Sequence record: OZ346212.1
Strand: one strand, 5' to 3'
Length of the DNA stretch: 64,000 nt
From: a phage
Part shown: positions 8,311 through 53,936 of the stretch, in pieces
How positions within the stretch are numbered: the first letter of the stretch is position 1
Layout: each line of letters begins with the position of its first letter
Made by a program: the position numbers and the translations under genes
The notes under the pieces: model-generated
What the model was told of the DNA's origin: nothing
The model's input: only the letters and a program-made list of their open reading frames with translations
Databases searched by the model: none

Positions 8311-11300
8311 ATGCTTCCAATCCCTTTGCTAAAACTTGGTCGTCATTTCCTCGATAAGAGGGGTGGAATTAAGGAACTTGCTGTTCTGTCATACCCAATA
8401 GACAACAGTGATGGTACAAGCAACACAGTATCCTATGTAAATAGCTTAGCTATACTTTTTGATGATGGTCAGCTTAATATTACTGGCTATAACAAGTTCG
8501 GAGAGTGCCGCACTGGGGATCGTAGCCCTATAAACTATCCGAGCGAAACAGCCTGGAATGTTGATCATGTGTGGAGAGCAGACCGCGCGTTTGTGATCCG
8601 GACTTTTGATAACCAGTTTTTCTACATCGGCTGCACTGCAGGTCTTATCGGATCCACTGCGGCAGGCGGTAATGATGTTTGCGTAAACGAGTGGACACCA
8701 CTCCCAGAGCAGATTGTTAAAGGATTGCACCTTGACACCCACCCAGAACGCCTTATTGAGGTGATGGGCGGTATTAACAACACTGTCTGGGTTATTGCAG
8801 AGGCAGAAGGTACTGGCATACTTAACCTGTATGGATCTGGTAACAACACCTACGGATCTTTGCATGTAGATAAAAATCAGCATGCAACCCCTGTAAAGAT
8901 TGGTGAGACATCGGAAAATCCTGAAACAGGCCCTTGGAAAAACCCAAGCATCAACTGTGAGGTGCATGACAACTCTGTTATTTTCGGTGGTCCTAGGGGT
9001 TTCTGGATTGCTGGATACGACTTTCTGAGAAATAACAGTAGAAACGACCTTGTTTGGCCTCCTGTGCAGATTACTCGTAACGATTTGAGGGGCATTCCTG
9101 CAGATGAGGAGTGGAAAGGGTTTATGTGTGGTCCTAACGGGGCAGTAATTGCTACACAGAGGATGCATAGACCCGATGACCAGCAGCTTGTTAACGTATT
9201 TTATGGTCAAAACATTTGGGGAGATGATACATGGCGGGAACTGAATATCACCTACACCCATGAGGTAATGATGGCTCGTGGGTACGGCACAAGTGGCATT
9301 TTCTTCAATAATGGCACTAAGCAGTATCGTGGGTTCTCTCGCAACTTATGTAATGATATTGGTGCACAATCTGCAAACAATAGTCCTAGGGCCGATTTTA
9401 TCCACTATCAAGCTCTTGCTACAGCTAAATATGTTGAGCAACGCCTGCCAGTCAGCTGGACAGAGAGTGTTTATTTCCAAGGCATCCACAGAGAAGGTTT
9501 CTTAGGGACCTTTACTGTTGTTAATGGTAAACTTTGGTGGTCAGGTATCCCAAGGGGAAGTTTTACAGGCTCTAATAACCTGTTTGGCGGCAGACTTAAT
9601 AGTCAGGGGTTCACAGAGGTTCCTGAGAATTGGTATAAAAATGTCCCAGTAGACAGTTGGGGCGTTGATGATATTTTCGACGTTAATGGTGTTAGCAGTG
9701 TTAGCAATATCTACATTGGTGACACGGTCAAGATGAAATTGAAGCCTCAGCCAGAGGGAGCTACGTTCATCATTGACAAGATTGAACTGGTGAATGCTGC
9801 AGGTACGGTTGTTACAGATGCAAATTACCAATTCTCCACCAACTGGAACCACGGCGGGGCCAACGAAGTTGTTGTTACCCAGTATAACAGAAATGTTAAC
9901 AGACGTGGCCTGTACTCTGTAAAAATAACCTATCATGACAAGCATGGCACAGGCAGAACTCACACGACAAGGACTTTGAACTGGAACACCATAGTTCCTG
10001 CGTATCCGTCCAACGGCAAGTGGCATACCGTTGGTAGAAACAAGCAGTTCCATGTTAACGATACTGTATACTTTGGGCTGAATGGGACCCAGCCTGCAGT
10101 AGAAGGGGATACATCGTATATGGTCAGACTCCACAGAATGGATGCTGGATCAGTCACTTATGATGTGACCCAAGAGATCTACGATCAAAGACGCGCCACG
10201 TATGACAATATTGTGAAAACACAAGCCTTGTGGGAGTTCAATCCTAATGGCAAGGGTGGTAAAATGTTGCAGGTTAATGAGCAGAACGGAACGTCGTTGA
10301 CTGTTCACGAACACCCAGACCCTTGGCCTGATCCTGGAAAACCTCACCCGGGAGCTCGTACACTGAAAATTGTCAGCCATGATGCAGGATATTTCGGAAT
10401 ACGCTGGGAAGCTACAGTAAGATATGTCGACGGGACAACAAACAACATAGGGATTACACTTGGCGGCACTAGTGAAGATAGCTCGCTGAAAATTGCCTAC
10501 ACGCCCAGAGGTATCTCTATTGATAATATGGATGTTGTTCGCAATGGTTACGGCGATGTGAATGTCAAAGTTACTCTTGGCGAACATCTTGGTGGGGAAA
10601 GGATCATCATGTATGCCTTTGATCATGATCCACGCACCAATGGAACTTATGCAAATCAGGCATGGAGTTACCTGATAAATGCACCTGAGCCGAATACTAA
10701 AGAGTTCTACTATGGCATGAAGCGAGATGTGTGCAAGAAAACAGGAACACATGACTGGATTGCTATCTGCGTTAAAGATGAGCGCACAGCTTGGGATGAG
10801 CCTGTTAACAGATGGTTCATAGGTATTCCTACCAGAAGTGATAAGTATGTCGCAGAATATATTGTATGCATGGGCGGTACCAACCTAAACATGTGTTGGA
10901 ACGAAGATGTAAACAAATACTCTGATTATGACTATATGAGGGATTACTCTTGTAATTTGTGGTTTAACCAAACTACAGGTTACCCTCCAAGACAGGCGAG
11001 AGTAAACCCTGCAATCTTCACAGACACGCAGGTTTTCTTGACAAAACAGGCCAACGAGGTTCAGACCTTCAAGAATAAATACGATCCTAACAAGTGGTTC
11101 TACAACTGTTACGGCGCATTTTTCTGGGGACCTGGTGAGTTACCTGGTGGTGGATCTTGCTTGAATGAGGCAACTTACGCAAGTGACTACATCATGGGGC
11201 AGGTCAAGAAGTATAAGATAATCCCCGGTCCTGAGACTTTGGGCAATGCCGTTGACCCTTATATCATCATGACTGCACTGAGATCAAACATGGATGGGAC

Positions 11301-13947: not shown

Positions 13948-13960
13948 CAAGGGGATAAAT

Positions 13961-13990
13961 AAAAAGGGGCCAAACGGCCCCTTTCTTTTT
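13961..13990. terminator. bidirectional rho-independent terminator between convergent operons
   Basis: AAAAA-GGGGCC-aaac-GGCCCC-TTTCTTTTT; A-tract upstream and T-tract downstream. Confidence 0.75.
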
Positions 13991-13994
13991 ATAG

Positions 13995-14195
13995 TTAGTA
14001 ATACTCCCAACATGCCCCATCTTCAGACGGCTTGACGCGCTTACCTTTATGGTCAACATAGGTATAGCCACAACCTTCACAAATAACAGGTGCTGCATAG
14101 CCTTCCTTCCACTGATCCTCAGTGATCAGACCTTCCAAATCTTTGCAGTCAAAGCCAAACAACTCTTCAGAGCAATCTTTACAAAAATCAGCCAT
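13995..14195 (-). CDS. small Cys-rich zinc-ribbon-like protein (66 aa)
   Basis: ORF with two CxxC pairs (CKDC...CEGC), SD GAGGA upstream. Confidence 0.55.
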   Translation of the reverse strand: MADFCKDCSEELFGFDCKDLEGLITEDQWKEGYAAPVICEGCGYTYVDHKGKRVKPSEDGACWEYY

Positions 14196-14198
14196 TTC

Positions 14199-14606
14199 TC
14201 AGTCCTCGCATTTAACAAATTTTTCTATAGATCCACCAAGCACAGCTTGTTGTTTGATGGCACTTTCTTCATCATAGTGGATAGACTTATGTTCCGTACC
14301 TCCAAACTTACCTGTGTGGAAGGTGTGCACCCAAATCTCTTTAGGAAGGGATTTATTCTCTTCCTCCACCAACTCCCACATACCCCACAAGTGATCTGTG
14401 ATATCTCTGATGAAATATCCCTCGCCGAGGTTTGTATTCACACTGTAAGCTGATTCGTGATCTCCGCAAATATAACGGAAGGCAGTGTACTCTTTACCTG
14501 GTGTGAAGTGAGTATCCATTAGTATGGCTGTTAAAGAATAAGGGTCTCGAAAGCCCAAGAACTTTAGTTTAACAATTTCGACATTTACATCTGCAAGATT
14601 ATCCAT
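14199..14606 (-). CDS. hypothetical protein (135 aa)
   Basis: Start moved to ATG 14606 (MDNLADV...) because SD GAGGAG and a - strand promoter lie inside the longer track ORF 14199..14663. Confidence 0.6.
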   Translation of the reverse strand: MDNLADVNVEIVKLKFLGFRDPYSLTAILMDTHFTPGKEYTAFRYICGDHESAYSVNTNLGEGYFIRDITDHLWGMWELVEEENKSLPKEIWVHTFHTGKFGGTEHKSIHYDEESAIKQQAVLGGSIEKFVKCED

Positions 14607-14634
14607 GACGATCTCCTCTGTTTGGTTGGTGAGA

Positions 14635-14664
14635 ATTATATATAGATCTGGTGGTGGCGTCAAG
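14635..14664 (-). promoter_or_regulatory. sigma70-like promoter on - strand (TTGACG-N18-TATAAT)
   Basis: Reverse complement of 14659..14664 is TTGACG and of 14635..14640 is TATAAT. Confidence 0.55.
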
Positions 14665-14767
14665 CTTAATTTTAAGAGATCTGAGAGGGTATTTTATTCA
14701 GGAAGGCAATCGCACAGGGTGGAGAAATTTATGAAGGCACAGGCCTCGTTTGAGGCCTTAAATTCTA

Positions 14768-15148
14768 TTATGACACTTTGACATAGCGCTCTGACAAAGC
14801 TGGGAAGCCAAAAGTAGTGCCTATACTACCATAGGCTATCCACCATTGGAGTTCATCGTGACACCATTTTCCGATCAGGAAGGTGCTGGGATAGCGGGTC
14901 AGTATTTTGGCATAAGCTTTAGGATCTGCATCTTCTGGGATAATGATGCTTGGAATATCTTTGTTATGACCACAGCAGCAGTTTAGCGTTTTCAAACCTG
15001 CTGCCCACAAACTCATGATAGGCTTAGCCATACACTTATCAAGGCACACACGTTTTTTGCCGTCACGAAGATTTTTAGGCACATCAACGATAACATTTGG
15101 ATGCTTGGCACCTTTTACTTTCCAATTATAGGATTTACACTTGCACAT
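14768..15148 (-). CDS. hypothetical Cys-rich protein (126 aa)
   Basis: ORF with SD GGAGAC upstream; multiple Cys clusters (CKCK, CLDKC, CCCGH) suggest metal binding. Confidence 0.6.
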   Translation of the reverse strand: MCKCKSYNWKVKGAKHPNVIVDVPKNLRDGKKRVCLDKCMAKPIMSLWAAGLKTLNCCCGHNKDIPSIIIPEDADPKAYAKILTRYPSTFLIGKWCHDELQWWIAYGSIGTTFGFPALSERYVKVS

Positions 15149-15198
15149 TTAATCAGTCTCCGTCTAGAAAGCCGCACTATACGTTTTTGAGGTATACT

Positions 15199-15369
15199 TT
15201 ACTTAAAGTCTTTATCACCTGCCACGATTGCATGAATCCACTCATTGTGATGCTCAATAGCGGTGAGATGTAACATGATGTAGTGATCGTCATTGCCAAA
15301 CATGATATGATAGGCTTTGGCAGCATTTTGATATAACTTCCACATCAGGTAATGATATCTTCGCCTCAT
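15199..15369 (-). CDS. hypothetical small protein (56 aa), not in ORF track
   Basis: ATG preceded by GGAGTAAGAG; fills the gap between flanking - strand genes. Confidence 0.4.
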   Translation of the reverse strand: MRRRYHYLMWKLYQNAAKAYHIMFGNDDHYIMLHLTAIEHHNEWIHAIVAGDKDFK

Positions 15370-15374
15370 GGCTC

Positions 15375-15845
15375 TTACTCCGGTTCAGGATCTGGGTAAT
15401 CTTCAATAATAAAGGGCCATCCGTTCCGCTTAGCCTCAGACTTATACTCAATCTCCTTCATTGCAAACTCTAACTGATTCTTAGCCGGAATACATGCCGG
15501 AGAATCATCAATCCAGATATCTGGGTAGATATCAAACTGCGCCAGGTAGGCTGCCTTCTGAACACCACCTGTGTAGAACACACCAACATCGAGCTCCTTG
15601 CGCCAATACTCAATGTCTACATTGTCTTGAGTAATGAATCGGAAAGTCACAAGGTAGACTGTCCACCCCTCCTTCTTCAGATCCCTGATCAGGCGGGAGA
15701 AGATGAAAGGGCTCGCATTAAACGTTCCATCAAAGTCGATGGCAATGATGTGCGTGCCGTGGCGAGTCTCATATGGATTGCTCGTGGTAAGATTGCTGTA
15801 ATTAAAAGGGACTTCTTCCCCGCAGTAGCTGTAGTCCATATTCAC
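15375..15845 (-). CDS. HAD-superfamily hydrolase, putative nucleotidase/phosphatase (156 aa)
   Basis: Motif I IIAIDFDGT (DxDxT) of HAD-like phosphatases; SD AAGGTG upstream. Confidence 0.65.
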   Translation of the reverse strand: MNMDYSYCGEEVPFNYSNLTTSNPYETRHGTHIIAIDFDGTFNASPFIFSRLIRDLKKEGWTVYLVTFRFITQDNVDIEYWRKELDVGVFYTGGVQKAAYLAQFDIYPDIWIDDSPACIPAKNQLEFAMKEIEYKSEAKRNGWPFIIEDYPDPEPE

Positions 15846-16117
15846 ACCTTCTCGTTGATAAATTTACGGGCGGTTTGGTGAGTTGTTTCTGCTGTCTTCA
15901 GAATGATATTAATTTTATCGTCAAGATCATTCATCTCGGCAGTTAATTCAGGAATCTCTCCGGCATGCATGGTGAAATCATACATAGACATGCCCAAGAT
16001 CTCATTGATGCGGCGGTTGCATTCTGCAGCACGCTGGTTCATTTTCCAAGCTAACACCAAAGCCTCCTGCGTAGCCTCTAGTGCAAAATCTAATACGTCG
16101 GCCTCTTCTTTCGTCAT
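15842..16117 (-). CDS. hypothetical protein (91 aa)
   Basis: ORF with SD GGAGAG, start overlaps downstream gene. Confidence 0.6.
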   Translation of the reverse strand: MTKEEADVLDFALEATQEALVLAWKMNQRAAECNRRINEILGMSMYDFTMHAGEIPELTAEMNDLDDKINIILKTAETTHQTARKFINEKV

Positions 16118-16174
16118 CTTAGTCTCTCCTGTTGTATTGTTGGTAGGTGTATGAATACCTTATAACTCACCTTT

Positions 16175-16741
16175 TTATTCAAACTGCAATAGTAAGTCCA
16201 CCACCGCGCTAGGTCTGTCAACAAATTCCCCAGGTCCACATGCCCACAGAGGGTATCCGTCTACATACCGCCAAATCCAACCTGCAGTGTGGAGTTCGAG
16301 CAGGGCAGTACCGTCCTTACTGTCAACCACTCTTTCCCACAGTGTCGGGCAGCGAAGCTTGAGGATCGGATCCCCTCCCTTATACCCATCCATGTAGATA
16401 CCCATTGCAAAGTTCAGCATCATCTTTTTGTGCACTGATCTTTTACTGAGGGTACTCATCACTTCCTCTTTGTGAATGTTTGTAAGCTTCTCCTTGGCTA
16501 CCCGCAGATCGTTGCAACCATTGTTCAGCAGATCTTCCAGACACTTGATCCGAAGGTCGTGAATGTCTTTGTCGTGTACCGTTGGCACAGGGTCGTAGCG
16601 GTATAGCACTGTTGATACAAGGTTGCTCGGGTGTGGGTCTGACAGCAACCCATAACCCCAATACTCTTCTGTATCTGAAAGGACAAGACACCCAATGTCT
16701 CTGTCAAGCTTTCCTGTGTTGTAAGCCACATTGACCGCCAT
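16175..16741 (-). CDS. hypothetical protein (188 aa)
   Basis: ORF in - strand operon with SD-like GGAGC upstream. Confidence 0.6.
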   Translation of the reverse strand: MAVNVAYNTGKLDRDIGCLVLSDTEEYWGYGLLSDPHPSNLVSTVLYRYDPVPTVHDKDIHDLRIKCLEDLLNNGCNDLRVAKEKLTNIHKEEVMSTLSKRSVHKKMMLNFAMGIYMDGYKGGDPILKLRCPTLWERVVDSKDGTALLELHTAGWIWRYVDGYPLWACGPGEFVDRPSAVVDLLLQFE

Positions 16742-16743
16742 GA

Positions 16744-16989
16744 CTATAGCTCCACTAGCAAAGTGCTTTCAAAGTGACGTTCATGCAGACCGTTGTAAGG
16801 GACCACTTCCACAACGCCATCACGGACATATGGGGCCATCATGGTGGTATAATCTCCAAACGGGTTGGTATTGTCACTAACCACAACCACCTTCTGCCCT
16901 TCCTTGGCAGAGTGCCAAATAGATCTGCACTTCATCAGGTGTTCGAGAGCCCCAGGTAAAATTTTGTTACGTTCTTTACGGGTCTTCAT
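16744..16989 (-). CDS. hypothetical protein (81 aa)
   Basis: ORF with SD AAGGAG upstream. Confidence 0.6.
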   Translation of the reverse strand: MKTRKERNKILPGALEHLMKCRSIWHSAKEGQKVVVVSDNTNPFGDYTTMMAPYVRDGVVEVVPYNGLHERHFESTLLVEL

Positions 16990-17435
16990 AACAGGTATAG
17001 CTCCTTATGAAAGTGATCTTTTAATTTCTCACTGAGAAACTTCTTGATACCTTCCTCTAAAGTGTTTTCGATGTAGTCCAGCTTAACTGCTTCGATGGAC
17101 ATATCATAGATCGCCAGCTCTAAGCTGTCAAGTCCCATCATAGCATGAACCATAAGATTTTCATCTTCAGATACATTCAGGGGACTTCCTATAACATCTG
17201 GAGGCAGAATAGTTTCCCAATTATTCTGGGTGGTAGTTCTCCCTCCCTCTACTTTACGGCGCAGTTCGAATGTGTTCTTAGTGTAGAACACTTCATAAGA
17301 AACGATACGACTGTCGCTCTCGTAATAAACGAAGTTCAGGTAGGAGCCTAGCCGCAGTCGGCAAACTTCTACCCCAAACCATTGTTTCTTATAAGAATTC
17401 AGGCTAATGCTGTCGCATTCACGTTTGCTCAACAC
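16986..17435 (-). CDS. hypothetical protein (149 aa; start GTG 17435 or TTG 17432)
   Basis: ORF preceded by AAGGAGAGAG; non-ATG start. Confidence 0.55.
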   Translation of the reverse strand: MLSKRECDSISLNSYKKQWFGVEVCRLRLGSYLNFVYYESDSRIVSYEVFYTKNTFELRRKVEGGRTTTQNNWETILPPDVIGSPLNVSEDENLMVHAMMGLDSLELAIYDMSIEAVKLDYIENTLEEGIKKFLSEKLKDHFHKELYLL

Positions 17436-25231: not shown

Positions 25232-25732
25232 GTGAAAATTAAGATCTTTGCTATTATTTTGAGCGCACTTTTATCGCTGCCTGTTGTTGCAGCACCAAAA
25301 CAAAAAGTATATCATACTTGCAAGCCCTCAGATACTAAGGAAAACATTCTGGCATGCAATATCTACAGGGAGGCTAGAGGGGATGGCACGATGGGTATGC
25401 TGGCATCAGGGTTTGCCACACTAAACAGGAAATCTCACCCCAAATACCCAGACACTATAAGAAAGATTGTCTACCAACCTAACCAGTTTTCGTGGACAAA
25501 CCACGGCAAAACTTTTAAGGTGACAGAAAAAGATTCATGGGATCACGCTAAAAGTCTTGCAAAGATGCTTCTAAAGGTCTATAATAACAACCATGTTGCA
25601 TACATGGCTATGGACATAACAGGTGGAGCAACACACTACCATACAACCAAAGTACGACCGAAATGGGCAAAAAAGATGCAGAGGACAGCTCAATTCGGGA
25701 GTCATATCTACTACAAGGAGCGCAATAAATGA
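25232..25732 (+). CDS. secreted SleB-like cell wall hydrolase (166 aa, GTG start)
   Basis: N-terminal signal-peptide-like segment (KIFAIILSALLSLPVVAAP); core NIYREARGDG...LNR...YPDTIRKIVYQPNQFSW matches the SleB-type lytic hydrolase pattern. Confidence 0.7.
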   Translation: MKIKIFAIILSALLSLPVVAAPKQKVYHTCKPSDTKENILACNIYREARGDGTMGMLASGFATLNRKSHPKYPDTIRKIVYQPNQFSWTNHGKTFKVTEKDSWDHAKSLAKMLLKVYNNNHVAYMAMDITGGATHYHTTKVRPKWAKKMQRTAQFGSHIYYKERNK

Positions 25733-26274
25733 TTGTAAACAGTAATGAAACTAAAGCAGTACTAACCGGAAATATGGAGGTCACCAGGGGCTCAATTTCT
25801 CTGAACAAAGAGACTTTTGGGCTAATCATTAAAGGGATTTACGAAGATAAGGTGCTGGCAAGCTGCCGTGAACCAATCTTCAATGCTGTGGACTCCCATG
25901 TTGAGTCTGGACGGGGTGATGTACCGATCATCATTCACTCTCCTACAGACCTTGAACCATACTTCTTTGTGCAGGACGTTGGATTGGGCATGTCGGAAGA
26001 GATGGTCCGCAACACTTTCATGAACCTCGGGGAGTCAACCAAGCGCAACAGCAACGCTCTGGTAGGTAATAAAGGTGTAGGTTCAAAGGCCCCGTTCAGC
26101 ATGGTGGACACTTTCGATGTGATCAGTGTGCCATACCAACACAACAGTGCTAAGTGCCGTGCATGCCGCTACGAAATAGTAGCAGCACCGGAATCACGCA
26201 AAGATGGCGATCCGATTGAATACGTAGTTGACCGTGATGGTAACATCATCGACATTATCTACGAGGAGGCGTAA
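25729..26274 (+). CDS. small GHKL-fold (HATPase_c-like) ATP-binding protein (181 aa)
   Basis: Bergerat-fold motifs in canonical order: N-box EPIFNAVDSH, G1 VQDVGLGM, G2 GNKGVGSKA; SD AAGGAG. Confidence 0.55.
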   Translation: MIVNSNETKAVLTGNMEVTRGSISLNKETFGLIIKGIYEDKVLASCREPIFNAVDSHVESGRGDVPIIIHSPTDLEPYFFVQDVGLGMSEEMVRNTFMNLGESTKRNSNALVGNKGVGSKAPFSMVDTFDVISVPYQHNSAKCRACRYEIVAAPESRKDGDPIEYVVDRDGNIIDIIYEEA

Positions 26275-33520: not shown

Positions 33521-35944
33521 ATGAGCATGTGGTCGTTCGACTTTGAGTCATCCGGTTTGCTGGAAGACCCAGATCTTTATTATCACTGCGGCCTGTTTAA
33601 AGAGCTGAATAAGAACCGTTTTATGCTGTTCCTTCCTCTAAATGACCGCACACACTACTCCGAGGAGGATATAGAAAAGGCTAAGAACTTCATTCTGGCA
33701 AAGAAAACTCTTTATAAAGATTTTGAAGTTCGCATAGCAGATTTTTCAGAGTTGGAAGGTTGGCTTACAGGAAATTCTGACTGGTCACCAACAGCTTTGA
33801 ACTGCCATAACTGCTACAGTTATGACTTTATGCTGATGGAAAGATTATCTGGTATTCATTTTGATATGTTCCGTGATCCTAAGTGTATGGGGACTATCAA
33901 CGATCACCAGGTTAACCTGTTTGATACGTTGGCGATGAGCCGAATCTTGTGGCCTGATCGCCCTTTACCAAAAGGTTGTCCGGACTCTGTATTCAACCCG
34001 GTTACTAAGAAAATGCAGCCTGTTGGTCCTCACGGCCTTATGGCATGGGGCTACGCCCTTGGTAACCAGAAAGTTCAAATTGATGACTGGCGCGATCTTC
34101 CGTTATGGAAGTATGTGGATCGTGTATTTGAGGACGTTATCATCCAGGAGCTGCTCTGGAAAGAGCTGGTAGCGGAATCAAAAGGTGTATTCTACGGCAA
34201 ATCTGACATGCAGAACTTTATGTACGATCCTGCCAAAGAGAAGCCGAAAGGGTTCAAGAAGATCACCTGGAAGAACGCATTACGTCGAGGCATGTTGCAG
34301 CACTTCCTGATGGAGCTGCAGGCCCGTCAGGGTGTATACTTCGACATAGATGGGGCTATTGCTTTACGTGACCGCTGCGATGCGTGGATGAAAGAGATCG
34401 CTGATCGTGTTGAACCACAACTGCCTTTAAAAGAGCTGTCAATGTCTCAGCGGCCCAAGTTCCCTGAAAAGCCGTTTAACCAAGATGGGACAATCTCTAA
34501 TAATGGTTGGAAATGGTTAAAAGATAAGCTTGGCTATCCTGTGGACATGAGTGCTTTAGAGTTCAAAGCCCCACCTAAGCGAGCATTTACCTCTACAGGA
34601 GATGTCAGTAAGATGGGGATAAAATGGTGTGAAGAGATGGGCTGCAAAGACCACGATAAGATGGCTGATTTCTTGAGAGGTTATATTAAGGGCACCTCCA
34701 CACCACAACCTTTACCTAAAGAGCTGATGGATCAGGCAATAAGCGATCTGCAACAGAAGCGAATGCCTGACTGCAAGATACCTATGAAAATCAGCAATCA
34801 GGACGACATTAAGCGATACCTGATCAGTGCTGGTTGGCTTCCGACAATGTGGAGAACTAAGGATGTAACTAAGGACAGCAAGAAGAAAGCTCTACCTGAT
34901 GCAGATGTTGATGCACGAGTATATGCATACATGGACGAGCTTTTAGAGTCAGAGTATTGTGACCTAATTATCAACTTCTGGAACAAAACTGATGCTAAGT
35001 TTCAGACAACAGTGCACAAGTTCCGAAGCTTTCCTAACTCCGAAAGGATTAAAAAGGAAGTGTTCGGGAAAATACGCAGAAAAGCCAGGGCACTTATTAC
35101 TTCTCCGCAACTGAAAGATACGTTTGGACACCTATGTCCGAATCTTGAAAAATTGAACGGAGAGATGGCTAAAGATATCGTCTTGTGGTTATCATTGCGA
35201 AACCGCAGATCGGTCCTTGATCCAATCAAGGAGGATAAGGTTGATACTGGTCTTCTTAATCACCCACGTTTGAAGATTGACCATAAGCTTCCTGCTAAAA
35301 GCTCTGGATTAACAAACACTTCCCGACAGAAACACAGTATTTGTGCAAACATGCCTAAACCATCTCCTAAAGTGGTTATGGGTAAAGAGATGCGTAGCTT
35401 GTGGGGTGTTCCTCCTGGATACTTTGAGATCGGTATTGACGGGTCCAACTTAGAGCAGCTTATCGGGGCTTGGGGTGCCTTTGAGTTCGACAACGGCTTG
35501 TACTATGATGTTGTAAGTAACGGGGACGCACACCAAAACAATGCTGAGGCATATACAAAAGTAGCAGGCAGAGAGGTGTCTCGTAACGACGGTAAACCTA
35601 TCACGTATGGGGTTATGTACGGGGCACAAAAAGATAAAGTTGCAGATATGCTGGATATCTCCCCAGAGTTGGGGCAAAGGGTGATCGATGCACTTTGGGA
35701 TGCCAACCCAGGTCTTAAGGGGCGCAAAGAGGATCTGGAGAAATTCTGGGAAGCAACAGGTAAGAAGTTTATCTACTCTTTTGATGGTCATGCTATCTGG
35801 ACCCGATCTAAACACTCTTTACTTAATGCATACCAACAAAATGGCGGCGCATCGTTGTGTGACTTAGTTGGGATACTCATGCACCATCAAATGGTGAAGC
35901 GTGGGTGGTACGATGAAGGTGTTCGTCGTATTATCTATTACCAT
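33521..35944 (+). CDS. DNA polymerase, family A, exon 1 (exo domain through motif B)
   Basis: Exo I SFDFES; motif A ...EIGIDGSNLEQL...; motif B ...RNDGKPITYGVMYGA...; the ORF reaches a stop 2 codons after the proposed 5' splice site and lacks motif C. Confidence 0.8.
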
Positions 35945-36786
35945 AAATAACATTGTGGCTTCGTGCAGTGATGCACGTCGAAAACCTCTTTAATTGACGG
36001 GAAGGCTAAGTTGACTTTTACACCTAAACATGGTAAAAGCTCAATATGCTAATCCGCAGCGAAGACTAAAGGGGTGTAGTTAAAATGGCTAGATCAGTTG
36101 AGTATCACGGATATACCGTGTTTGATGATGGAACAATACCTTTATCGAAACGTGATCATACAACAATGTTTTGTTTTGATAATGGTCGAGGTTACCTTTG
36201 CGTAACCATGTTCATCGAGGGGAAGCAGTGCACAAAAGGTGTCCACCACTTGGTTGCTGAATGCTTTGTATCAAACCCTGATCCTGAAAGGCTCACATGG
36301 GTGAACCATAAGGACGGAAACAAATACAACAATGCATACTGGAACCTTGAATGGACCACCCCTGGTGGAAATATCAAACACGCTTATGATAATGACCTCA
36401 GAGTAAGGCCAGTCGGTGAGTATAATGCCAACGCTGTACTGACCGAGGATGAGGTAACGGAGATTTGCGAACTGTTACAAAGTGGTTTACGACAATGCGA
36501 GATTAGGGATCTTGGGTATCCTTATGAGACGGTCAGAGCCATAAAGCAAAGAAGACAGTGGAAACATATCTCTAAAAACTACACCTGGTAGTAACGTTCA
36601 GAGACTATCGAAAGCATAGCGCCAACATAAATTGGTGCGAAGAAGCGAGTAGAGTAGACCAGCAAGTGCGGTCGAAATGGGAGGTGCCTTGGTAACAAGG
36701 TAGTGAGATAGTCCGATCCATACAGGAAACTGTATGGCTGTGCACGTAATGGTGCGGGGTAGCTTAACGACCTACCTGAACTATTG
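35945..36786 (+). ncRNA. group I self-splicing intron (842 nt) interrupting the DNA polymerase gene
   Basis: Core elements P aattgacgggaagg (35992), Q aatccgcagcgaag (36051), R gttcagagactatcg (36596), S gagatagtccgatcc (36705); exon ends in U pairing with intron GUGG; intron ends in G; removal restores RIIYYH-DEYQLQV (motif C). Confidence 0.75.
36085..36591 (+). CDS. HNH homing endonuclease encoded within the intron (168 aa)
   Basis: HNH_3-like motif VHHLVAECF...VNHKDGNKYNNAYWNLEWTT; lies between Q and R elements (P6-loop position). Confidence 0.8.
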   Translation: MARSVEYHGYTVFDDGTIPLSKRDHTTMFCFDNGRGYLCVTMFIEGKQCTKGVHHLVAECFVSNPDPERLTWVNHKDGNKYNNAYWNLEWTTPGGNIKHAYDNDLRVRPVGEYNANAVLTEDEVTEICELLQSGLRQCEIRDLGYPYETVRAIKQRRQWKHISKNYTW

Positions 36787-37140
36787 GATGAGTACCAACT
36801 TCAAGTCCCTGACACACCGAAGTATAAGACTGTGTACACCTTCGACACAATCGAAGAACTGGAAGCATTTAAGGCAGAGCAGGAGGCCAAACTTCATGTG
36901 TTCGACGGTCATAAGTACAAAAAGGCACGCAAGGATGAGGACGGAAACGAAGTGGTTGACAGAGACGGAAACACGGTGTACGATCCTATCCTGAACGATG
37001 ACGGAAAGCTTGAACTTATCTGGAGCCCTGTGGGTGAAATGGTGGTGCATTGCTTCTGGCAAGCTTCTAAAATGATGGGCGTCCCGTTCCAGATCACGGG
37101 TGAATACCTGTGTGGTCGTAATTGGGGTGATTGTCACTAA
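36787..37140 (+). CDS. DNA polymerase, family A, exon 2 (motif C to C-terminus)
   Basis: Begins DEYQLQV in frame with exon 1; no plausible independent start or RBS. Confidence 0.7.
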   Translation, partial: DEYQLQVPDTPKYKTVYTFDTIEELEAFKAEQEAKLHVFDGHKYKKARKDEDGNEVVDRDGNTVYDPILNDDGKLELIWSPVGEMVVHCFWQASKMMGVPFQITGEYLCGRNWGDCH

Positions 37141-37189
37141 TGTAAACTATCAACACATGGAAGTGTTGTTGAGCAAAGAGGAGACTTTT

Positions 37190-37474
37190 ATGGTAGTAGA
37201 ACCAACAAAAACATTTACATCCATGACTATCCCTGTTATTATGCAGGTGGAGTGTGTTCAGGTATCTCAAGTGTGGCCTGGCACCAAAATCCCGACAGGG
37301 CCTGATTTCTTTCAGGTTGGCAAAGTGTACAATGTCTGGAAGGCACCAGATTGTTACCCTTTCATCAAAGATGACCGTGGGATGCTGTGGTATCTTGGAA
37401 ATGATTTGACACTGCACCTTGGGAATGCTATTATTGCAGTATTCAGACTTAACAAGAAGGAGACTGATCAATGA
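37190..37474 (+). CDS. small protein of the KDDxGxxW family (94 aa)
   Basis: ATG 37190 with SD AAAGAGGAGA; motif FIKDDRGMLWYL shared with the next two genes. Confidence 0.55.
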   Translation: MVVEPTKTFTSMTIPVIMQVECVQVSQVWPGTKIPTGPDFFQVGKVYNVWKAPDCYPFIKDDRGMLWYLGNDLTLHLGNAIIAVFRLNKKETDQ

Positions 37475-37698
37475 CGACTTTGGTTAAAGCTACCTTTGTA
37501 GAAGAAAAGATGACAGACCTGTCATTCTTTAAAGAAGGAAAGACCTACGAGGTTTATTACGATAAAGCTCGTGCAAATAAAATGATTAAAGACGAGGAAG
37601 GGGTTGCCTGGTTTATCTCCCATCTGGCAAACGGTGAGTATCATATCTACGGAACCACCCTGCTTGCCAAGTTTGTAGCTGTTGAAGAGGACCTATGA
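37471..37698 (+). CDS. small protein of the KDDxGxxW family (75 aa)
   Basis: SD AAGGAGA; motif MIKDEEGVAWFI. Confidence 0.6.
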   Translation: MTTLVKATFVEEKMTDLSFFKEGKTYEVYYDKARANKMIKDEEGVAWFISHLANGEYHIYGTTLLAKFVAVEEDL

Positions 37699-37889
37699 AA
37701 GTAAAGTATCTGGCTGAGGGTATGAGTAGGTATTTCACCCTTGGTGAAGAATATTGGCCATTTACAAGCAACGGCGATGTCTACGTGAAAGATAATTTCG
37801 GCACGCCATGGTTTTTGCACCCTAACGGGTTAGGGTATTCTATTTATCGCAGTGCAATGAGCGACACAACCCTTGCAGAGTTTGTATAG
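37695..37889 (+). CDS. small protein of the KDDxGxxW family (64 aa)
   Basis: SD-like GAAGAGG; motif YVKDNFGTPWFL. Confidence 0.6.
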   Translation: MKVKYLAEGMSRYFTLGEEYWPFTSNGDVYVKDNFGTPWFLHPNGLGYSIYRSAMSDTTLAEFV

Positions 37890-37899
37890 AGGAGGTAGA

Positions 37900-38271
37900 A
37901 TGTTAGTAAAAGGTACTCACACAGTCAAACAACGTATCGAAGTTGAGATCGATGACTGCGAGCTGAAGCATATTTTACGGTCATGTTCCAACGTTTTGCT
38001 CCTTAGTATTCTCCAGGAGCGAGCGGAGAACGAGTTCTTAAATGCACTGGCAGGCCGCCCTGGTGATTTCTGTGTGCGTAAGCGTGGTGACAACAAGTCA
38101 TGGCTGTGGGAGATAGACGCAGAATGGGATTACCATAAAAATGAGGGTATAGATGAACCTATTCGTGAATTGACGGACAACGAGGTTCAGATGTACAATG
38201 AAGTTTGTCAGTGGGCAAAAAGTCAACAAACTTATCTTGATCCTTGGTGGATGATCGAAAATAGTCGTTGA
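37900..38271 (+). CDS. hypothetical protein (123 aa)
   Basis: ATG 37900 with SD GAGGAGG preferred over upstream track start 37873. Confidence 0.6.
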   Translation: MLVKGTHTVKQRIEVEIDDCELKHILRSCSNVLLLSILQERAENEFLNALAGRPGDFCVRKRGDNKSWLWEIDAEWDYHKNEGIDEPIRELTDNEVQMYNEVCQWAKSQQTYLDPWWMIENSR

Positions 38272-38347
38272 CAGGAAGTAAGATTAGATATAAGATGCTT
38301 CACACAAACAGAGCGTTGATTGTTTAACACTTAAGGAGACCGCTAAG

Positions 38348-38602
38348 ATGAAAATTACTCTGAAGCCAGAATGCGTTGAAAATGACCGAGCTTTTAAAGA
38401 TTGCACAATCGGTGCAATTTATGAAGCAGAGTTTTGTGAGAACCCTTTGGTAAAAGCCCTTCTGGAAGAAGGAGCTCCTCTATCACAGGAAGAGCTTGAT
38501 GAGTTGGAAAACTCAGCACAGTGCCTTACCTTTAAAGATGATGAAGGAGACTCTGTCTGGTGCACTGTTAATGAAGTAGTTTTTGTAAAACCTGAACATT
38601 AA
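38348..38602 (+). CDS. small protein, paralog pair member (84 aa)
   Basis: SD AAGGAGA; KPECVENDRAFKDCT...TFKDDEGDSVWCT aligns with 38666..38938. Confidence 0.6.
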   Translation: MKITLKPECVENDRAFKDCTIGAIYEAEFCENPLVKALLEEGAPLSQEELDELENSAQCLTFKDDEGDSVWCTVNEVVFVKPEH

Positions 38603-38605
38603 TGC

Positions 38606-38634
38606 TTGACAACAGTCATAGGGCCTACTATAAT
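38606..38634 (+). promoter_or_regulatory. consensus sigma70 promoter (TTGACA-N17-TATAAT) with inverted repeat AGGGCC/GGCCCT flanking the -10
   Basis: Perfect hexamers at 38606 and 38629. Confidence 0.7.
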
Positions 38635-38665
38635 GGCCCTATCAAAACGAAAGGGGACCACAGCA

Positions 38666-38938
38666 ATGACCAAACAATATCAACGAATTAAAGCCAAGGT
38701 TAAGCCAGACTATCTGGAGAAGGACTCTGCTTTTCGGGACTGCACAGCTGACAAAGTTTACACAGGGGCCGTCCTGTTGAACGATGAACTTGAAGTAGAT
38801 ATTCTGGGTAAAGAGGCCACTATTAAGGACGACCAAGGCGATTATGTTTGCTGCACCACACGTGAGCTAGAAATCTTAGAATACTTCGGTGAAATCTTCA
38901 CCTCTCTTGATGATTACTTAGATGATGAGGAAGCGTGA
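38666..38938 (+). CDS. small protein, paralog pair member (90 aa)
   Basis: Start moved to ATG 38666 because track start 38606 lies inside the promoter; KPDYLEKDSAFRDCT...TIKDDQGDYVCCT. Confidence 0.6.
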   Translation: MTKQYQRIKAKVKPDYLEKDSAFRDCTADKVYTGAVLLNDELEVDILGKEATIKDDQGDYVCCTTRELEILEYFGEIFTSLDDYLDDEEA

Positions 38939-39327
38939 TGAAAAATATTTGGGATATCGATATCTTTGAAGCCTCTAAGCTTGATGGTGCTGATGGAGTG
39001 ATTATGGTGTCTGATGGCAAAGCAACACTAACTTCCGGAGATATCATCTATGCCTTGGACGAGCTGGCGCTTCTGAAATCTACCGGTAACACTTTAGAGG
39101 AGCGTCTTCAAGGCTTCGCCTTCAAAGAAGGCACAAATACCGCCATGATGTGCACCACACGGACAGTTCAAGTTGGTAACGGTGTCTATATGATCATTGC
39201 TGTGTGTCCTAAATTCAGCAACGTCAACAAAGATGATGCTGACGCTGTCAACGATGTGGTTGTTCTCTTCGTGGGTGACGCTATGGCAGATCTGATGAAT
39301 GCAGGAGAAGCAGCAAATGAAGACTGA
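38935..39327 (+). CDS. hypothetical protein (130 aa)
   Basis: SD GAGGAAG, start overlaps upstream stop. Confidence 0.6.
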   Translation: MMKNIWDIDIFEASKLDGADGVIMVSDGKATLTSGDIIYALDELALLKSTGNTLEERLQGFAFKEGTNTAMMCTTRTVQVGNGVYMIIAVCPKFSNVNKDDADAVNDVVVLFVGDAMADLMNAGEAANED

Positions 39328-40331: not shown

Positions 40332-41557
40332 TGAGCGTTATTCAACAATTCGCTAACCCGATGAATCCGCGTGAAACTGTTTTACTGGCTCACGGCATGA
40401 TTAAACGTGTCAGCATCAAGCCTATCAAAGGTGCTGATCCTACAACAGGTATTAAAACCACTGTGTGGCAAGGTAAGAAAATTGAATCCAGCCACACCAT
40501 CTCTTTACTGATTTCTGAACTGGATTCCTCTGATAACCTGCTTCAAGGTGGTGAAGAAGTTTGGATCAGCATGGGTGATAAGCTGCTTAAACCTGGTCAT
40601 CAAGACTCTGTCTCTGTTAAAATTGATGACAAGTGGGAAACCGTAACGCCGGGATGGATCGTAAATATTCCTTTGAAGGCAAACGAGCATAACGGTAAGA
40701 CCTATTACAAAGGCTCACTGGCTAAGATGGTCAAGCTGGGTGCAGGAGAGGCTCCAGCAGCGACTCAGCAGCAAAAACAGCAACAAGGTGCACAATCACA
40801 AGGCCAGAAGCAGAAACCTCAGCAGAATGCCAATCAGGACGTTTTACGCATCTATGGTGATGTGACTCAGATTGTTGGCAACGTGGTTACTGTTAATGAC
40901 CACAAGATTGGCGAAGGTGCTATGGTTGTAACTGATGAGCAGCTTAAAGACCTGGTGGTAGGTGGTCGTGTTGCAGCCATTGTTGACAAAGACACCGGAA
41001 ACATTATCAGTGGTTTCAAGGCCTATCCTCCTAAGGCAGAGAACGGCACTCAAGGCTCTGGTGGCAAGCGTAAATCCTCTTACGACCCTATCGGTGTGGA
41101 AACGGGGCATAGCATCAATGCGTTGCAGATCATCCTGGATCGCGGGTTTAAGGTAGACGACCCACTGGGCGTGGCTAAAACACTGCACGTAGTCACCATT
41201 GAGCTTAAGAAAGAGTATGCTCAAGCCACCAACCGAGCTGAAGATGAAGTAGGTGCCAGTGTCGGTAATGCGGTGTTGAACGCTTGTCGCCGTATTGACA
41301 AGAAAACGAAAGTTGATGATTTTGCAGTGGCAATTACTGCAGAAGCAAAAGATGTCTTGACTAATCTAGCTGAGCCGTTGTACGATTGGATCAAGAACGG
41401 TGCTGAGTCCACTGACCATCAAGAACCTCAGGCTGCCAAACAGGAAGCAGCTCCACAGCAAAACACTGTAGACGCTCCTCCTGTAAATGATGCGGAAGAT
41501 GACCCAATGGATCAGAATCCAGCACAGTACGTCTTTGATGATGACATCCCATTTTAA
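40331..41557 (+). CDS. ssb: single-stranded DNA-binding protein with host-like acidic C-terminal tip (408 aa)
   Basis: C-terminus ...VFDDDIPF ends in the hexapeptide DDDIPF of E. coli SSB; Gln/Gly-rich linker precedes it; located in replication module. Confidence 0.65.
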   Translation: MSVIQQFANPMNPRETVLLAHGMIKRVSIKPIKGADPTTGIKTTVWQGKKIESSHTISLLISELDSSDNLLQGGEEVWISMGDKLLKPGHQDSVSVKIDDKWETVTPGWIVNIPLKANEHNGKTYYKGSLAKMVKLGAGEAPAATQQQKQQQGAQSQGQKQKPQQNANQDVLRIYGDVTQIVGNVVTVNDHKIGEGAMVVTDEQLKDLVVGGRVAAIVDKDTGNIISGFKAYPPKAENGTQGSGGKRKSSYDPIGVETGHSINALQIILDRGFKVDDPLGVAKTLHVVTIELKKEYAQATNRAEDEVGASVGNAVLNACRRIDKKTKVDDFAVAITAEAKDVLTNLAEPLYDWIKNGAESTDHQEPQAAKQEAAPQQNTVDAPPVNDAEDDPMDQNPAQYVFDDDIPF

Positions 41558-41572
41558 CATTTAGTTAACATA

Positions 41573-41600
41573 GCCCTGCCAGAAAGGGTGGGGTATTTTT
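41573..41600 (+). terminator. rho-independent terminator
   Basis: GCCCTGCC-agaaa-GGGTGGGG followed by TATTTTTGT. Confidence 0.65.
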
Positions 41601-41619
41601 GTATAAGGAGATCTAAAAA

Positions 41620-42036
41620 ATGACATTAGAAGATATCATTGTTAAACCTGAGAACTATGACCAATACAACCTGTCAACTCAATCTGTAGACCTTGGATGC
41701 GCCACGGTCAGTGCGTGGCTGGTTAACGGAAAAGAGCTGGATAAATGCTTAGAAGCTCACATGTCTATTAACAAGTTTCTGGATGAAAATACTCACTGGC
41801 TTGAGGGTGCAGGAGTATATGCTTCATGGTTGGAAAGTATGGGATTCGACTACCAATCTGAAGAAGGGTGGTGGAGCTATTTAGCTATCTGCCCAGAGAC
41901 GCTGCAATGCTTCATGAAATATTCTGAAGATTTGGAGTACCGGGCGGTGGTTGATAGTGCTATTGCCCGTTATAGCCGTAAACCTTTTTCCCACGACATT
42001 AAAACTGTGGAAGAGTTTGTTGAAGTTTTCTGTTGA
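41620..42036 (+). CDS. hypothetical protein (138 aa)
   Basis: SD AAGGAGA upstream. Confidence 0.6.
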   Translation: MTLEDIIVKPENYDQYNLSTQSVDLGCATVSAWLVNGKELDKCLEAHMSINKFLDENTHWLEGAGVYASWLESMGFDYQSEEGWWSYLAICPETLQCFMKYSEDLEYRAVVDSAIARYSRKPFSHDIKTVEEFVEVFC

Positions 42037-42132
42037 CACAGGTGGAAAGGTGTGCAATTATAACTTCATAGAACGGGAGGACGTGATGAACGAAGAAAAC
42101 TGGGATGTATAACTAACAGGAGGCCACTGCCC

Positions 42133-42398: not shown

Positions 42399-42824
42399 AT
42401 GATCTATGAAATGCCAAAACTGATTCGTGACGATGCCCAAAACGCCCACACCTTTATCATGGGCAAGCGCATGGATATTATTTGTCATAAAGATTTCTGG
42501 GAAGGTAGTTACTTCACAGAATATTTTGGTAAACTGGATAATGGTCTGCTGATCCAGTTCTACACCGATGCGGAAAACAATATCTGCTGGGAGTTCGAAA
42601 CTGAAGATATCCATAAACTTTTCACCTTCCTAGGTATTAAGGTTGAGGCCAAGTTTGAAGAAGGCGAGTGCGACGATTGTGGATTCTACGAGGTAACAGA
42701 TTTCTATCTCCCAAGTGGTGAGAACCTTTACTATGAAAGCCACTTCGGCAACTCAAATATGCCACAAGGTTGGGATGAGTTTTTTGAAATTGCGGAAGAG
42801 GAGCTGACATACCGTGATTATTGA
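42399..42824 (+). CDS. hypothetical protein (141 aa)
   Basis: SD GGAGAA upstream. Confidence 0.6.
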   Translation: MIYEMPKLIRDDAQNAHTFIMGKRMDIICHKDFWEGSYFTEYFGKLDNGLLIQFYTDAENNICWEFETEDIHKLFTFLGIKVEAKFEEGECDDCGFYEVTDFYLPSGENLYYESHFGNSNMPQGWDEFFEIAEEELTYRDY

Positions 42825-43272
42825 TACTGTAGCGGGAGATTTAATCTCCCTTTTTAAGAGCGGTGCTGGTCACCTGATCCACGGTTGTAACTGCTTTCAT
42901 ACAATGGGTGCAGGCATAGCGAAAGATATTGCCCGTGAGTTCCCTCAAGCACTGGCAGCCGACAAAGAGACTGCCTATGGTAATCTGGACAAGCTGGGTA
43001 TGTTTTCTTGTTGGGAGCATTTTGCCAAGAACAGGGTCGTATATGGAATCAACCTGTATACCCAGTTCTACCCAGGGCCCAATGCTGAATACTTCTCAAT
43101 AATGAAAGGTTTTGAGCGAGTCAACGAGGTATTCAAAGGTGTGTCATTGCCGTTCTACATTCCTAAAATTGGATGCGGTATTGGCGGTCTAAAGTGGGAA
43201 CATGTAGAAGATGTAATTAATCTTGCAACCACAGATATTGATGTGGTTGTAGTAGAGTACAAAAAGTGTTGA
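42814..43272 (+). CDS. macro-domain (ADP-ribose-binding/processing) protein (152 aa, GTG start)
   Basis: Macro-domain pattern: ...GDLISLF...AGHLIHGCNCFHTMGAGIAKDI (matches VNAAN...GGGV..AI region) and ...LPFYIPKIGCGIGGL (matches the FP.I.TG..G region). Confidence 0.65.
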   Translation: MIIDTVAGDLISLFKSGAGHLIHGCNCFHTMGAGIAKDIAREFPQALAADKETAYGNLDKLGMFSCWEHFAKNRVVYGINLYTQFYPGPNAEYFSIMKGFERVNEVFKGVSLPFYIPKIGCGIGGLKWEHVEDVINLATTDIDVVVVEYKKC

Positions 43273-43297
43273 CGACCATCTTCTGAGGTGATATAGT
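43269..43297 (+). promoter_or_regulatory. sigma70-like promoter (TTGACG-N17-TATAGT)
   Basis: Hexamers at 43269 and 43292. Confidence 0.6.
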
Positions 43298-43523
43298 TTC
43301 CACAACAACTAAGAGAGGAGAGCACTGTGGAGACTAAAATCTTAATTCTTGCTGTGGTAGATACAACCGAAGGAGCTATATTCGAATCTGCAGGGGGGTA
43401 TTTCTACCTACCATACGGAAAAAGAACTTCCGAGCCAAGTAAAGATTCAATCCTCAAGGTGTTCCCGTGTGCTTTCTGGCTGGAGATTTTGGTATAAGAT
43501 TGCAGAGGATTTGGGAGAGAATT

Positions 43524-43718
43524 ATGAGAAACAAGAAAGAGCTTTACTCTGGTGAGTGGATCAACGATCAACAGGTGGGAGAGGTAACCTGCTTCCGATG
43601 TTTTACCAGGTACAATCTTAAAACTGCACCAAAAAGTGTTCCAAAGACTGACGGTTATTACATAAAAGAACCTCATTGCCCAAAATGTAAATGCCGATTA
43701 TACTGGAGTAACCTGTAA
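43524..43718 (+). CDS. small zinc-ribbon protein (64 aa)
   Basis: ATG 43524 with SD GGGAGAGA; CFRCF...CPKCKC cysteine pairs. Confidence 0.55.
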   Translation: MRNKKELYSGEWINDQQVGEVTCFRCFTRYNLKTAPKSVPKTDGYYIKEPHCPKCKCRLYWSNL

Positions 43719-43722: not shown

Positions 43723-43750
43723 TTGACATCTGAAAACTGCAGTGTATAAT
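43723..43750 (+). promoter_or_regulatory. consensus sigma70 promoter (TTGACA-N16-TATAAT)
   Basis: Hexamers at 43723 and 43745. Confidence 0.7.
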
Positions 43751-53259: not shown

Positions 53260-53560
53260 AATAAGGCAACTATGCAAACGGATGGCATGGCGCGACGGAG
53301 TCGCGACATAATATAAAAGCAGTAACCATCACCCCCGTGATAGTTTGTCTGCAAACTATTAATCAGATCATAGTTGCCTTGTATTTAGTTAATCATGACA
53401 TAACAAGCAAGGCAACTATAGATCTGCTAATAGTTGCCCTGCTTTTATATTATGTCATAGATTATTAGCCTGTTAATTGTTAGTCAGTCAAATCAACAAC
53501 GTTATCATTTCAGTCTTTATTGTTGTTGATCGTTATTGTTATCATGCAAACGAATGGCAT
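53260..53560. repeat. repeat cluster in convergent intergenic region
   Basis: AAGGCAACTAT in forward (53262, 53411) and inverted (53372, 53432) orientation; hairpin TAGTTTG-tctg-CAAACTA; direct repeat TGCAAACG(G/A)ATGGCATGGC at 53273 and 53541. Confidence 0.6.
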
Positions 53561-53936
53561 GGCTTATCATTTTTGAGTAAACAATCTATACGTGAACAGT
53601 GAGGCAAGTTAGCAGCCGATAGATTAGATATTAACCTGCAGACTTCTGACCGTCTAGACGTCTAAACGCCCACACAACAAGGATTATACATACAATACTG
53701 AATGTAAACAGGGCCGCAAAAATGCTACCATACCACAGATTGTAAATTTTTCATGCAGCACTTGACAAAGAGGAGAACTTAATTTTATCAGGATAGGCAA
53801 GAATGTCAAGGCATGACTGCTCACTAAACAAGCAAACAGTCATGTGTGGGAGGTAAGTGATTGTGGTGGTAGGAAATTTAGTTGAAAGATGTGTTATAGG
53901 TGCTTCCAGCACTTTAGCCGGGCAGCTAATTGTGTG

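Follow-up and report, generated by a model that had tools for sequence, protein, structure and literature searches.

The toxin DarT2 ADP-ribosylates thymidine in single-stranded DNA, and the antitoxin DarG is a macrodomain protein (PMC11825919). Macrodomains of the TARG1-like class hydrolyse such thymidine-linked ADP-ribose on DNA (PMC9411070, PMC13036486), and the bacterial chromosomal proteins SCO6735 and BT1257 protect against DarT outside any DarTG operon. Phage orphan-antitoxin macrodomains directed against DarT2 are already on record, with a 2025 preprint on T4 and a 2026 paper on PhiKZ. In a transposon screen of T4 on a DarTG2 host, tk.4 was the single significantly depleted gene, and a clean tk.4 knockout gave a DarTG2-sensitive T4; the gene was named adfM, anti-DarT factor Macrodomain (10.1101/2025.11.20.689424). 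Gp104 of PhiKZ, which bears the same name, removes DarT2-made ADP-ribose from an oligonucleotide, is needed against DarTG2 (Cell Rep 2026, PMC13309987) and acts inside the phage nucleus (PMC13309987). Here we describe a gene of this kind in a 64,000-nucleotide stretch of phage DNA from sequence record OZ346212.1, referred to below as the window. The gene (42814..43272 on the + strand, stop codon included) runs from a GTG start to a TGA stop and encodes a standalone, TARG1-like macrodomain protein of 152 residues, of the T4 Tk.4/AdfM type. The 2.8-kb stretch around it is 99.8% identical to Escherichia phage JLBYU08 (Vequintavirus murica, rV5-like) and matches 121 phage records at 80-100% identity, and each vequintavirus record holds a single copy of the gene. 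Phage Bas59 (EduardKellenberger), a vequintavirus of the BASEL collection, has a copy with 95% identity. Given the work on T4 and PhiKZ, the idea of counter-defence that a first-pass annotation of the sequence had attached to this gene is no longer new.

An orphan macrodomain related to T4 Tk.4

The open reading frame (ORF) of the first-pass annotation was recovered with exactly its coordinates. Its GTG start is supported both by a Shine-Dalgarno sequence, AGAGGAG (42797..42803, +), that stands 10 nt upstream, with a ribosome-binding site recorded at the equal place in phage Murica, and by an alignment with T4 Tk.4 that runs from residue 1 to residue 1. The macrodomain identity was confirmed by hidden Markov model (HMM) searches, in which Pfam PF01661 (Macro) matched in two stretches with 25.9 bits against a curated gathering cut-off of 22 (E 1e-5) and PHROG 335 ('phosphatase') matched at an E-value of 1.4e-59. 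The PADLOC model of DarG was matched over its macro part alone (1.4e-13, 49 bits, model positions 9-143 of 329), and the NCBIfam DarG model at 1.7e-12 over positions 4-144 of 338, with 47 bits where the equivalog cut-off is 250. DarG was also the best match of the single sequence in the PDB (1.4e-5). A profile of the whole family found BT1257, DarG, SCO6735 and TARG1 at 1e-13 to 1e-14 and SARS-CoV-2 Mac1 at just 1e-3.

Structure prediction gave the macro fold as well. The AlphaFold2 model, built from an alignment of 59 homologues, is a three-layer alpha/beta/alpha macro fold (predicted local distance difference test, pLDDT, 96.4; predicted template modelling score, pTM, 0.91), for which the top Foldseek matches were TARG1 (first, 3e-10), Poa1p (2.5e-9) and DarG. 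In the comparison with known structures, scores were 18.9 for BT1257, 18.3 for both the M. tuberculosis DarG macrodomain and Poa1p, 17.5 for TARG1, 17.0 for the Thermosipho DarTG fusion, and 13.8 or below for the coronavirus, alphavirus, MacroD and PARG types; TARG1/ALC1-like members are the closest structural neighbours, and the MacroD, viral nsp3 and PARG classes follow at a clear distance. Together with the profile result and the partial nature of the DarG-model matches, this ranking makes the protein a TARG1/ALC1-like macrodomain that is neither MacroD-like nor a DarG. The MacroD-type motif FP.I.TG..G that had been read near the C-terminus is not present; the actual sequence there is IPKIGCGIGGLKW, which is of the TARG1/DarG type.

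The window protein and T4 Tk.4 share 39% identity (E 1e-43, residues 1-150 aligned to 1-152) as well as the motifs IHGCNCFHTMG, NLYTQ and P-x-IG-x-GIG. Both are standalone, phage-borne orphans of about 150 residues with Gln at the position of the DarG lysine, although their phages belong to different groups, the Straboviridae and the Vequintavirinae, and although Tk.4 reaches only 36 bits against the PADLOC DarG model, to which the vequintavirus copy scores higher (49 bits). Relatives were found by tblastn in 2742 of 50,697 phage records and, among the matches listed, many adjoin vs, the valyl-tRNA synthetase modifier gene of T4-like phages, and are thus tk.4. The window copy and T4 have no flanking genes in common. 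Judged from its sequence and position, a gene of Krischvirus UPWr_E1 appears to bridge the vequintavirus and T4 groups: it is 69% identical to the window protein and, with vs on one side and tk on the other, occupies the place of tk.4, in the order regB, two genes, the macrodomain gene, three small genes and tk. In pairwise comparisons the proteins of the window, Krischvirus and T4 cluster together at 129-222 bits, while DarG, SCO6735/BT1257, TARG1 and PhiKZ gp104 score 20-45 bits against this cluster and are at roughly equal distances from it.

The macrodomain gene is an orphan, without an adjacent darT. A tblastn search with a single P. aeruginosa DarT2 query found, at BLAST sensitivity and E < 1, no homologue in the window or in 80 viral and 80 bacterial loci of the family; an origin from a DarTG operon was considered and is unsupported, as there is no DarT2 homologue beside any of these 160 loci. 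Clustering of all ORFs in the 80 viral loci returned T4-type synteny alone (vs.1, vs, tk, regB), and genes for ADP-ribosyltransferases, NADAR, Tpt1/KptA, RNA ligases or sirtuins were not recurrent beside the family in these loci. Homologues in bacteria are rare, with 94 stretches, mostly from Rhodobacteraceae, in a search of one genome each of 185,579 species, and no toxin partner was seen among the recurrent ORFs beside them.

Active-site residues and predicted function

Conservation was assessed in 60 diverse homologues and in the set of 80 viral loci, which had been found by a search pattern. Residues G24, N26, C27, M31, G34, A36, D50, N80, Y82, Q84, P117, G120 and G122 are, among others, invariant in the 60, and the family motifs IHGCNC, NxYTQ and PxIGxGxxG are kept in both sets. 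In the 80 viral loci Y82 is present throughout, Q84 in 79 and D50 in 78, none of the three being part of the search pattern, while the invariance of N26 (60/60 and 80/80) is partly due to the construction of that pattern. Asn26 of the IHGCNC motif (codon 42889..42891, +) corresponds to N23 of PhiKZ AdfM and to N27 of SCO6735. Gln84 of the NLYTQ motif (codon 43063..43065, +) stands opposite the lysines of DarG (Lys80) and TARG1 (Lys84) and corresponds to Gln85 of SCO6735, a placement taken from HMMER alignments to 5m3i, 5e3b, 2fg1 and 4j5r and from a MAFFT alignment. The diphosphate-binding loop, G120-C-G-I-G-G125 (codons 43171..43188, +), was located by alignment to TARG1; its G120 and G122 are the invariant glycines, and G124 lies opposite the catalytic Asp125 of TARG1. 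Of the predicted ADP-ribose pocket, N26 and the G120-G125 loop are thus conserved.

Mutations at the equivalent positions are informative. N23A reduces the activity of PhiKZ AdfM (PMC13309987). In SCO6735 acting on DNA with thymidine-linked ADP-ribose (T-ADPr), no hydrolysis remains with Q85A or Q85E and almost none with N27S, and a water-mediated mechanism without an acid-base residue has been proposed (PMC9411070). As T4 Tk.4 carries the same NLYTQ motif, the Gln type is compatible with protection in vivo.

Comparison with these and other macrodomains sets the Gln-type protein apart in several ways. SCO6735 and BT1257 (PDB 5e3b, 2fg1/2afc) are likewise standalone, with Gln at the Lys position and Asn in the N-terminal motif. 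They share 56% identity with each other, but SCO6735 is just 23% identical to the window protein (39 bits) and BT1257 34% over a shorter local match (35-39 bits for the two). Both are bacterial and chromosomal rather than viral, and both carry a lysine-bearing insertion of 5-6 residues after the Gln, where the window protein is gapped. DarG (PDB 5m3i, 5m31, 7omu) has the same predicted substrate and its HMMs match at 1e-12 to 1e-13, yet its catalytic Lys80 is a Gln in the window protein, which also lacks both the C-terminal DarT-binding domain and the adjacent darT. PhiKZ gp104 is, like the window protein, a standalone phage macrodomain with the conserved Asn (N23 = N26), but it falls with DarG (40% identity and 87 bits to the macro domain of M. 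tuberculosis DarG), keeps the Lys (FPTKDNW) and has just 22% identity, at 26 bits, to the window protein. Because Gln84 replaces the lysine as in SCO6735, and because gp104 is DarG-like and distant, two separate phage lineages go under the one name AdfM, and this distinction between a Gln type and a Lys type is a nuance not brought out in the literature found. Human TARG1/OARD1 and yeast Poa1p share the overall fold, the ADP-ribose pocket and the IH-x-C motif, with Poa1p additionally sharing the Asn (IHxCNC). Both are eukaryotic housekeeping enzymes, however; Poa1p acts on a small molecule, and the Lys84/Asp125 dyad of TARG1 is Gln84/Gly124 in the window protein.

We consider it fairly probable that the window protein is an AdfM-type orphan hydrolase which, by SCO6735-like chemistry, clears replicating phage DNA of the ADP-ribose that DarT2 has placed on thymidine. 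Host RNA polymerase would express the gene from sigma-70-type promoters of the same direction, just 3' of the replication genes. The protein would then bind ADP-ribose attached by a host DarT2-type toxin to thymidine in single-stranded phage DNA and hydrolyse the N-glycosidic bond, so that ADP-ribose is released and replicable DNA restored. Gln84, held by Asn26, would position the distal ribose and the catalytic water, with no catalytic lysine involved (the SCO6735 type, not that of DarG or TARG1), and the protein would serve as an 'orphan antitoxin' in counter-defence. The earlier proposal that a standalone phage macrodomain reverses an ADP-ribosylation defence thus finds support in the fold, the kinship with T4 Tk.4, the adfM phenotype of T4 and the chemistry of the TARG1-like class.

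Several points weigh against this reading. The requirement under DarTG2 is known for the T4 copy alone, where the evidence is a preprint and genetic only, and 39% identity to Tk.4 need not guarantee the same substrate. The sole phage AdfM with biochemistry, PhiKZ gp104, is the Lys-type, DarG-like protein with its 22% identity. The extended, lysine-bearing mobile loop of SCO6735 (Lys89, Lys94), which has been proposed as a possible aid in DNA binding (PMC9411070), is absent from the window protein, as seen in the alignment gap. No data on the resistance or sensitivity of vequintaviruses to DarTG2 were found in the literature searched, and the Bas54 transposon library is unreported on DarTG2.

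One alternative is that DarT2 is blocked mainly by stoichiometric binding of the toxin and not by hydrolysis of its adduct, with a variable surface segment that tracks DarT2 variants. Loss of catalysis in SCO6735 (Q85A), DarG (K80A) or TARG1 (K84A) leaves the inhibition of DarT in vitro in place, which is strongest with SCO6735 (PMC9411070), and among vequintaviruses the macrodomain gene forms an allelic hot spot. Compared with that of phage NWU366V (locus L008, 2001-2459), its product is 83.6% identical, with a synonymous divergence (dS) of 1.05 and a ratio of nonsynonymous to synonymous divergence (dN/dS) of 0.11, while the genes around it all have dS of 0.53 or less (about 0.03-0.5) and are mostly 95-100% identical. 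The first ~60 nt of the two alleles are nearly identical and the amino-acid changes are concentrated in residues 53-75. Such a high dS between flanks of low dS points to an old allele swapped in by recombination. Diversifying selection was considered and rejected, since dN/dS denotes purifying selection and the high divergence fits allele replacement, which the hot spot resembles. The low ratio, together with the homologues in so many phage records, indicates that the gene is functional. Moreover, N26, Q84 (but for the single locus noted above) and the G-rich loop are invariant across the 80 diverged homologues, as an enzyme predicts, and the protein has no counterpart of the C-terminal DarT-binding domain of DarG. 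Inhibition mainly by toxin binding is therefore unlikely.

It is likewise improbable that the protein removes mono-ADP-ribose from the acidic residues of proteins, whether of the host or of the phage, undoing a protein-targeting host transferase or tuning modifications made by the phage. While TARG1 is the best Foldseek match and both TARG1 and SCO6735 hydrolyse glutamate-linked ADP-ribosylation of proteins (PMC9411070), the Lys84/Asp125 dyad that TARG1 uses on protein substrates is replaced by Q84 and G124. The absence of a recurrent ADP-ribosyltransferase gene beside the family in the 80 viral loci also speaks against it, although the whole phage genome was not scanned for transferases and PMBT16, the relative with the fullest labels, has nearly all its genes recorded as hypothetical; Mokosh restricts vequintavirus Bas54 except when T4 Alt is provided, which hints indirectly at the lack of an Alt-like transferase. 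In the screens found, the one conditional phenotype of the T4 orthologue is that under DarTG2.

Quite unlikely, too, is a small-molecule enzyme that cleans up by-products of RNA repair or nicotinamide adenine dinucleotide (NAD) consumption, either as a Poa1p-like ADP-ribose-1''-phosphate phosphatase or as an O-acetyl-ADP-ribose deacetylase. Existing records label the gene 'putative macro domain-containing protein', 'Macro domain protein', 'Poa1p-like family protein', 'phosphatase (contains Macro domain)' or 'A1pp motif', and several of these labels would favour such a role, but 'phosphatase' derives from the old domain name A1pp and not from an assay. The IH-x-CNC motif is indeed shared with Poa1p, and residue 30, Thr here, is Ser in Poa1p (the site of the crystallised S30A mutant). 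Nevertheless, genes for Tpt1/KptA, RNA ligases or sirtuins are not among the recurrent neighbours of the family in the viral loci, the polynucleotide kinase fragments of the phage lie far off on the other strand, and the phenotype of the T4 orthologue is specific to defence.

Very unlikely is a role against other NAD-based defences, through reversal of RNA ADP-ribosylation (CmdTAC-like) or destruction or sequestration of an ADP-ribose-derived signal (Thoeris). The activity of TARG1, DarG and SCO6735 does extend to uracil-linked ADP-ribose in RNA (PMC13036486), but CmdTAC defends robustly against T4 and ADP-ribosylated RNA accumulates in T4 infection despite Tk.4 (PMC11618068), so that adenine-linked ADP-ribosylation of RNA is not neutralised by the family. 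In the literature searched, no bacterial defence that ADP-ribosylates uracil in RNA was found, and neither a link of the family to Thoeris nor other support for the NAD-derived signalling once suggested for this gene was seen. For the hydrolase of T-ADPr that we favour, a wider substrate range, for example uracil-linked ADP-ribose on RNA, may be considered by analogy.

Gene neighbourhood and exchange between phages

The macrodomain gene lies in a long run of + strand genes, 3' of the primase, DNA polymerase and single-stranded DNA-binding protein (SSB)-like genes, and is surrounded by many small genes of unassigned function. Directly upstream, a 141-residue gene from the ORF list (42399..42824, +) belongs to PHROG 8157 (unknown function) and gave no Pfam match; as its stop overlaps the GTG of the macrodomain gene by 11 nt, the two are probably translationally coupled. 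A candidate sigma-70-like promoter, TTGACA-17-AATTAT with TG (42033..42061, +, 10/12 in the promoter scan), is located after a strong terminator-like hairpin (41573-41594) that itself lies 3' of the SSB-like gene, and from its position may serve a small operon which includes the macrodomain gene. Near-consensus sigma-70 promoters are found along the + strand from ~23 to 49 kb, which fits transcription by the host polymerase, and early expression of the macrodomain gene would be expected. Perfect 12/12 matches to the sigma-70 consensus (TTGACA-N16-18-TATAAT) recur on this strand at 43723-43750, 38606 and 47010. On the minus strand, promoter matches of at least 11/12 occur at 140-17,131 and then from 53.8 kb on, with none between. 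The 64-kb window has no tRNA genes and no Rfam families at gathering score. In the relatives PMBT16 and NWU366V the SSB-like gene is separated from the next one by a gene for endonuclease VII, which the window (41557 to 41620) and JLBYU08 lack.

Within codons 7-14 of the macrodomain gene lies a terminator-like hairpin, GGGAGAT-TTA-ATCTCCC followed by TTTTT (42834..42850, +), that was found by the terminator scan and is recorded as 'terminator' in phage Murica. Its 7-bp stem has a minimum free energy of -10.1 kcal/mol, with an energy z-score of just -1.71. The tk.4 genes of T4 and Krischvirus retain the stem with a swap of A:U to C:G (GGA/TCC to GGC/GCC, Ser12 to Ala12). All seven pairs are formed in 11 of 80 homologues, and most others lack the stem.

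The first-pass annotation had placed a sigma-70 promoter and a small zinc-ribbon gene after the macrodomain gene. Both are real, but the zinc ribbon is not the next gene. The promoter, TTGACG-17-TATAGT with an extended -10 TG (43269..43297, +, 10/12), overlaps the macrodomain stop codon and would serve the downstream genes; both its hexamers are kept in three diverged relatives. It is followed by an ORF of 56 codons and unassigned function (43327..43497, +; PHROG 15268, 3.5e-43) that is an annotated coding sequence in JLBYU08, and this ORF makes the zinc-ribbon gene (43524..43718, +; 64 residues, CxxC...CxxC, Pfam PF23903 Phage_zn_bind_2, 8.1e-23) the second gene downstream. In Krischvirus UPWr_E1 (locus L007, 3001-3637) the macrodomain and PF23903 genes of window positions 42814-43718 are both present, at 69% and 78% amino-acid identity, and the zinc-ribbon copy lies directly 3' of the macrodomain gene and overlaps it, whereas the window has the promoter and the 56-codon ORF between them. 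Horizontal transfer, rather than a common function, is suggested by this two-gene block of Vequintavirus and Krischvirus. The zinc-ribbon gene was considered as a functional partner and rejected, since just 6 of the 80 viral loci have a homologue at 4 kb or less from the macrodomain gene. The gene that follows tk.4 in T4 encodes Tk.3, a DUF7202 protein unrelated to the zinc ribbon.

Elsewhere the window differs from JLBYU08 in several places. An in-frame rIIA-rIIB fusion occupies 25729-26274, in which residues 1-134 are the N-terminus of rIIA and residues 125-181 correspond to residues 345-401 of rIIB. About 2.6 kb of JLBYU08 is missing here, and the junction (26116-26131) lies in a 16-nt near-identical stretch, GATGTGATYAGTGTGC. 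The deletion is found in none of 120 related phage records. The fusion recalls the classical rII deletions of T4 and may mark a laboratory-selected rapid-lysis variant. At window position 52959/52966, ~3 kb of small genes (JLBYU08 36207-39236) are absent, and at 53467-53767 some 300 bp replace ~1.5 kb (JLBYU08 34177-35706); both of these lie near a region of divergent transcription that was insertion-free in the Bas54 transposon study. The window also has ~530 bp extra (36064-36593) where the DNA polymerase gene of JLBYU08 is split.

Two phage lineages and the place of rV5-like phages

A broader scenario is possible, though we put it forward only tentatively. Macrodomains against DarT2 may have been acquired by phages on two or more occasions, once as the DarG-derived Lys type seen in PhiKZ AdfM and once as the much more widespread Tk.4 lineage, which would be lysine-free and water-mediated and would descend from standalone bacterial 'guardian' macrodomains rather than from a DarTG operon. 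The old, recombining alleles of Vequintavirus would then be matched to DarT2 variants or to extra substrates such as uracil-linked ADP-ribose on phage RNA. Lysine-free, water-mediated chemistry has so far been described for SCO6735 only (PMC9411070).

The vequintavirus gene extends the findings on T4 and PhiKZ rather than opening a new question. Phages of the rV5-like group find wide use in the typing of E. coli O157, in biocontrol and in therapy cocktails. If the predicted function is correct, these phages would carry a ready enzymatic answer to DarTG2, and the presence of the gene would help to predict their host range on strains with DNA-ADP-ribosylating defences. As a small protein that is predicted to be well folded, the vequintavirus macrodomain would also offer a Gln-type representative for lysine-free cleavage of T-ADPr by TARG1-like enzymes.

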